DNA of 58,267 nucleotides from Promethearchaeati archaeon (GTDB taxonomy: Archaea > Asgardarchaeota > Heimdallarchaeia > Heimdallarchaeales > Heimdallarchaeaceae): NCBI GenBank assembly GCA_013166775.1, contig JABLTJ010000021.1, forward strand, positions 1 through 58,267. The letters run 5' to 3'. Every line of letters starts with the position of its first letter. The stretch's first letter is position 1. The notes under the pieces were generated by a model that saw only the letters and a program-made list of their open reading frames with translations, was not told the origin of the DNA and did no database searches. Positions 25,497-25,607 of the stretch are shown here, piece after piece. A program made the translations under genes and the position numbers.

Positions 25497-25607
25497 ATGG
25501 ATTTCAATATCATATCTACCTTATCGATAATTGCTTTATTAATCGCTGTGATTTTTGGTTTGTTCTATCACGCATTTAGTGTTGGTAAGGAAGAAAAAGA
25601 AACATAA
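25497..25607 (+). CDS. 36-aa single-TM microprotein, OST4-like (not in the ORF track)
   Basis: MDFNIISTLSIIALLIAVIFGLFYHAFSVGKEEKET; BRE/TATA-like CGAAAAGCTTATTAA at 25453-25467; YH motif at the TM end, then a charged tail. Confidence 0.75.
   Translation: MDFNIISTLSIIALLIAVIFGLFYHAFSVGKEEKET

Follow-up and report, generated by a model that had tools for sequence, protein, structure and literature searches.

A conserved 36-residue membrane microprotein of Heimdallarchaeaceae as a likely Asgard homolog of the oligosaccharyltransferase subunit OST4

We describe a 36-residue membrane microprotein from a Heimdallarchaeaceae genome that is likely, though not proven, to be an Asgard homolog of OST4, a single-helix subunit of oligosaccharyltransferase; we put the probability of this reading at roughly 78%. 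Its gene lies in a 58,267-bp contig, called the window here, together with the following features.

18166–18603, forward strand: 145-aa OST3/OST6-family protein of OSTC/DC2 size (Pfam PF04756, E = 1.4e-08, 35 bits, above the cut-off)
23224–25344, forward strand: rpa, replication protein A large subunit (RPA OB-fold families in Pfam)
25453–25468, forward strand: BRE/TATA-like promoter element CGAAAAGCTTATTAAT, ending 28 nt before the microprotein ATG
25497–25607, forward strand: gene of the 36-aa Ost4-like microprotein, with a single TM helix at about residues 5–25, Y24-H25 and a short charged tail
25611–28526, reverse strand: convergent 971-aa protein with hydrophobic N- and C-terminal segments and 26 N-X-S/T sequons

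The microprotein frame consists of 36 codons and a TAA stop, and occupies the gap between rpa and the convergent gene without overlapping either, as an earlier note on this DNA had described. That note had also found the frame missing from its list of open reading frames; our translation agrees with its 36-aa product, and the exact sequence has no entry in a 15-billion-protein collection. Since this collection does contain the products of rpa and of the OST3/6-family gene from the same contig, the microprotein has evidently been left uncalled. Its hydropathy peaks at 2.8 in a 19-residue window (residues 5–23). Of 24 other genomes in the same genus, 23 carry a homolog (E ≤ 3e-10). Among 24 congeneric copies, pN/pS is 0.25, with pN below pS in 268 of 276 pairs, and variability by codon position follows the order 3 > 1 > 2 (0.31/0.18/0.06); the gene is under purifying selection. 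The promoter-like element was correctly placed by the note at ~30 nt upstream, and its core AAAAGCTTATTAAT is present in all 24 congeneric copies, starting 41–43 nt before the ATG. From this spacing we infer a leaderless or near-leaderless transcript. A sigma-70 promoter scan, with a model unsuited to archaea, gave chance-level counts only. A 46-aa version beginning at the in-frame upstream ATG at 25467 was ruled out, as this ATG falls within the TATA element and is unconserved.

The source genome holds 229 small hydrophobic ORFs outside long ORFs, a background that would suit a reading of the microprotein as a chance ORF of AT-rich intergenic DNA. This reading is already refuted by the purifying selection, the codon-position pattern and the conserved promoter, as well as by the occurrence of the family in 52 of 85 genera, and we give it virtually no chance. 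The 25497–25607 frame is a real gene, conserved, nearly always single-copy and equipped with its own promoter-like element.

Among the neighbouring genes, rpa adjoins the microprotein gene also in Ca. Heimdallarchaeum aukensis and two other Asgard families, and is a conserved neighbour, not a functional partner. The 971-aa protein, which had no match in a Pfam search, is on sequence grounds a plausible N-glycosylation substrate; its gene is convergent to the microprotein gene across the whole genus and its C-terminal membrane anchor is conserved. The OST3/6-family gene lies 7 kb upstream of the microprotein gene, and its product would be the third subunit one expects in subcomplex II; the copies in close relatives are annotated as hypothetical. 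Another open frame (20768–21883, forward strand) encodes a 371-aa protein with hydrophobic N- and C-terminal segments and 9 sequons, whose faint matches to GIFT and OST48_N (E 0.05–0.07) make it at most a candidate WBP1/OST48. At 13550–17161, a KaiC-like ATPase, a FIST-domain protein and a Ras-family GTPase are all encoded on the reverse strand. With a ribophorin I match (E 1.8e-11), the source genome holds an STT3-like AglB, an OST3/6-family protein and ribophorin I together; none of the Pfam models used for OST5, DAD1 and OST48 scored above its cut-off in this genome, which is 89% complete.

Iterated profiles, started from the 25497–25607 frame without eukaryotic input, recovered the family from 53 of 83 genomes of the class in the first round and, in later iterations, from 87, 158 and then 206 of 399 Asgard genomes, nearly always with one match per genome; these tallies contain a few weak noise matches. 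Aligned members are 33–50 aa long. The families that hold them, named from neighbouring genes, include Njordarchaeota, Freyarchaeota and Borrarchaeum, and a large group that is probably mostly Thorarchaeia has a match in 85 of its 89 genomes. The gene is a stand-alone one, but its neighbours are shared across Asgard families, rpa being found beside it in three of them and Lhr helicase in several; this supports orthology among the members. In the same family as the source genome, the Ca. Heimdallarchaeum aukensis member that adjoins rpa (UJG39928.1, K9W45_08730) is listed as a hypothetical protein of 83 aa, its N-terminus having been over-extended in annotation, and carries FH where the source has YH. 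On the same H. aukensis chromosome (1944716–1951097, loci L068 and L124), aglB and the microprotein gene are only ~4 kb apart, on either side of rpa, and two other genomes carry both genes on one contig, 36 and 50 kb apart. The microprotein gene of the source genome is not clustered with aglB.

Searching 1.84 billion representatives with family profile A2 returned 15 proteins, all Asgard-family-like, and no eukaryotic Ost4 among them, while an ESM Atlas search gave unnamed clusters only, at 0.86 or less. The Asgard-family profile found no credible member among 134 genomes of Lokiarchaeia, in agreement with a 2024 study of Lokiarchaeon MK-D1 that gives OST1, OST3/6 and STT3 as its only OST subunits (PMC11417166). 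Five weak lokiarchaeial matches, mostly inside long ORFs or containing stops, were excluded as members. AglB open frames in Lokiarchaeia span ~1,200–1,300 aa, compared with ~755 aa in the source genome.

The microprotein does not match the Pfam Ost4 family (PF10215, gathering cut-off 25 bits), and the Pfam search of Asgard genomes that the earlier note had proposed found no match over the cut-off in any of 251 genomes. Against a eukaryotic Ost4 profile the single sequence scores 2.9 bits, which places it 11th among the 218 small TM ORFs that were scored from the same genome, and its single-sequence Pfam matches are assorted unrelated one-helix families. Weak single-sequence scores are to be expected, since yeast and human Ost4 reach only E 0.65–0.85 against each other. 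HMMER searches of the PDB with profiles A1, A2, A3 and A7 hit unrelated helices only and never retrieved Ost4 at E ≤ 10. Among the Pfam matches of the A7 members, Ost4 is the most frequent family (3/41, best E 0.0055). For one member, L096, which A3 recovers at E 1.8e-5, the PDB yields yeast Ost4 and nothing else (E 0.14), a stronger match than that between the yeast and human proteins.

Profile–profile comparison goes further. Profile A3, which had no eukaryotic input, aligns gaplessly with database eukaryotic Ost4, the first positions of the two being paired (hhalign 92.5%, pairwise P 4.8e-7). A7, which contains L096, a member first found via Pfam Ost4 and later recovered independently, also aligns gaplessly in exact register (93.5%, P 2.4e-7), as does, again without gaps, a 53-member alignment (93.4%, P 2.6e-7). 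The eukaryotic Ost4 sequences come from yeast, filamentous fungi, animals and plants, without protists; all comparisons used database entries, and plant and fungal seed peptides served for retrieval only. The observed A3 score of 24.7 compares with maxima of 14.0 for 80 AglB membrane windows and 16.6 for column shuffles, and with 10.9 for the reversed profile. Much of the score stems from the YH pair and the length, though not all of it: when M and YH were held fixed and columns 2–24 shuffled, scores stayed high (mean 17.1 for A3 and 15.6 for the 53 members), yet reached the observed value in only 2 of 100 shuffles for A3 and in none of 100 for the 53 members. Columns 2–24 alone peak at register 0, with 9.0 against at most 0.4 elsewhere. 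Multiplied by the number of Pfam families, the pairwise P amounts to only ~0.01, and we rate the sequence evidence for a relation to Ost4 as moderate.

The pattern of conserved residues is mixed. Conservation of the Tyr-His pair, which the earlier note had singled out as a check, is complete within the order (Y24-H25, answering to the invariant Y25-H26 of eukaryotic Ost4, is unchanged in 20 order-level members) but not universal in Asgard archaea, where the 41 members aligned phylum-wide retain Tyr in 32 cases and His in 24, and have a net acidic tail in 37. The note's statement that length, topology and YH fit OST4 holds for the 36 residues, the one TM helix and Y24-H25; D4 and G15, invariant in 16 eukaryotic sequences, are missing, with F and L at the corresponding columns. 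Gly occupies the G15 column in 18 of 53 Asgard family members. In L156–L164, members of a large Asgard family that is probably Thorarchaeia, His is replaced by Ser, Met or Val, and a Gly is retained ten residues before the Tyr, equivalent to eukaryotic G15; four exact look-ups of these members found them absent from the called-protein collection.

Such differences could reflect convergence, in which an independent AglB-binding helix came to fill the Ost4 groove and acquired its YH and length under the same binding constraint. The lack of a Pfam- or HMMER-level link to Ost4 would be in keeping with this, as would the missing D4 and G15 and, unlike in yeast and animal Ost4, a His replaced in 17/41 members and a tail that is acidic in 37/41. 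Convergence does not readily account for a register-specific similarity that persists over columns 2–24 without YH, for His-less members that still align in register with eukaryotic Ost4 (71%, P 3.6e-5), or for a eukaryotic signature that is kept piecemeal, as MID..YH in some lineages and as LG..Y in others. Given the Asgard ancestry of the partner STT3, co-inheritance is also the simpler history. We regard convergence as improbable and favour homology with OST4.

The source genome encodes one AglB (contig C35; STT3 family PF02516, E 1.2e-49), for which human STT3A is the top match in the PDB (E 1.9e-94). Co-folding it with the microprotein gave ipSAE values of 0.78, 0.78 and 0.76, with contacts agreeing to at least 90% between runs and a partner pLDDT of at least 82. 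The best control scored 0.00, as did all controls, namely two unrelated 36-aa partners, which are not stated to be membrane helices, and an unrelated large protein. Among 80 solved complexes, 58 attain the mark applied to such co-folds, against 2 among 110 mismatched pairs; these counts are rough here, where our own alignments were used. Predicted contacts fall on AglB residues 29–56, 156–169, 437–449 and 474–493, taking in its first TM helix (32–50) and the last one before the outer domain (471–489). As the contacts pair residues in antiparallel order (10 of the peptide with 44 of AglB and 24 with 37; 14 with 485 and 22 with 474), the predicted orientation places the N-terminus outside and the YH and tail in the cytoplasm. 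Yeast Ost4 likewise has its N-terminus out and its C-terminus in. The docking on AglB/STT3 that the earlier note had suggested as a check is obtained in the model, at a predicted site corresponding to that of yeast Ost4, which sits between Stt3 TMH1 and TMH13 (PMC7226087).

Since STT3–OST4 complexes have been solved, the co-fold pass may reflect memory of these, that is, likeness rather than binding. The microprotein might then belong to another complex, for example as an accessory of the translocon, an ATPase or a transporter, with the model putting a hydrophobic helix into a remembered groove. The assorted one-helix families among its single-sequence Pfam matches, the position of the gene beside rpa or lhr rather than aglB, and the lack of a credible member in Lokiarchaeia, which have AglB, would be compatible with such a role. 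However, the two unrelated 36-aa partners and the unrelated large protein score 0.00, and the independent profile evidence points to Ost4, so we attach only a slim chance to membership of another complex. The earlier identification of an archaeal OST4 homolog draws support from the order-wide YH, the in-register profile match and the predicted AglB docking, but none from PF10215, and little from the single sequence.

As an OST4 homolog, the microprotein would be a non-catalytic single-helix subunit of oligosaccharyltransferase. In the model, its helix lies against three TM helices of AglB, namely the first, the last and, at its cytoplasmic end, the penultimate, and is antiparallel to them, so that its N-terminus would be outside and its YH and tail cytoplasmic. 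By analogy with yeast (PMC7226087), it may stabilise AglB and help the OST3/6-family subunit to join, forming an archaeal subcomplex II. The mostly acidic tail could pair with the basic cytoplasmic loop that precedes the last AglB helix (about residues 450–468), a loop whose net charge lies between +3 and +9 in each of the 28 Asgard AglB proteins that were aligned; the tail of the source microprotein is weakly acidic (−1). In four members the tail is basic instead (L096:1462-1587, L107:2978-3118, L113:2948-3097 and L171:1972-2097), and one of these matches yeast Ost4 most closely. New details of the Asgard family are its acidic tail and the loss of His in particular lineages.

The earlier note knew of no report of OST4 outside eukaryotes, and the novelty that this implied does not hold: the text of Eme et al. 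2023 (Nature 618:992; PMC10307638) states that Ost4 homologues were identified in most Asgard classes. This is the same claim as ours, and the homologues may belong to the family described here. Within its supplementary text, OST5 and WBP1 alone are named as new, and the sole 'ost4' match is 'Ost48'. The main text assigns Ost4 to subcomplex I (PMC10307638), whereas it belongs to subcomplex II (PMC7226087).

If our reading is correct, the smallest eukaryotic oligosaccharyltransferase subunit and subcomplex II (STT3, OST4 and OST3/6) were already present in Asgard archaea, an idea that has been published. To this we add a defined sequence family that gene callers have mostly missed or over-extended, a site at which it is predicted to bind, and a set of three genes for use in reconstitution. 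A fuller picture, to which we give somewhat less than even odds, is that the family supplies the actual protein, left largely uncalled, behind the Asgard Ost4 whose existence the text of Eme et al. asserts without sequence documentation; that its acidic tail faces the basic AglB loop; that it was lost or replaced in Lokiarchaeia; and that an AglB–Ost4–OST3/6 subcomplex II is older than eukaryotes and could be reconstituted with three genes from Heimdallarchaeaceae.

Compared with eukaryotic OST4, and yeast Ost4p in particular (PF10215; PDB 1RKL, 2LAT, 6EZN, 6C26, 6S7O and 6S7T), the microprotein falls under the Pfam cut-off, lacks D4 and G15 and is ~17% identical to the yeast protein. Asgard tails also differ from those of yeast and animal Ost4 in being mostly acidic, and several Asgard lineages have replaced the His. 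The two nevertheless share a length of 36 aa, a single TM helix and a Tyr-His pair at the helix end in the same register, and are alike in their site on STT3 TM1 and the last TM helix and in their N-out/C-in orientation, both of which are predicted for the microprotein from the co-fold.
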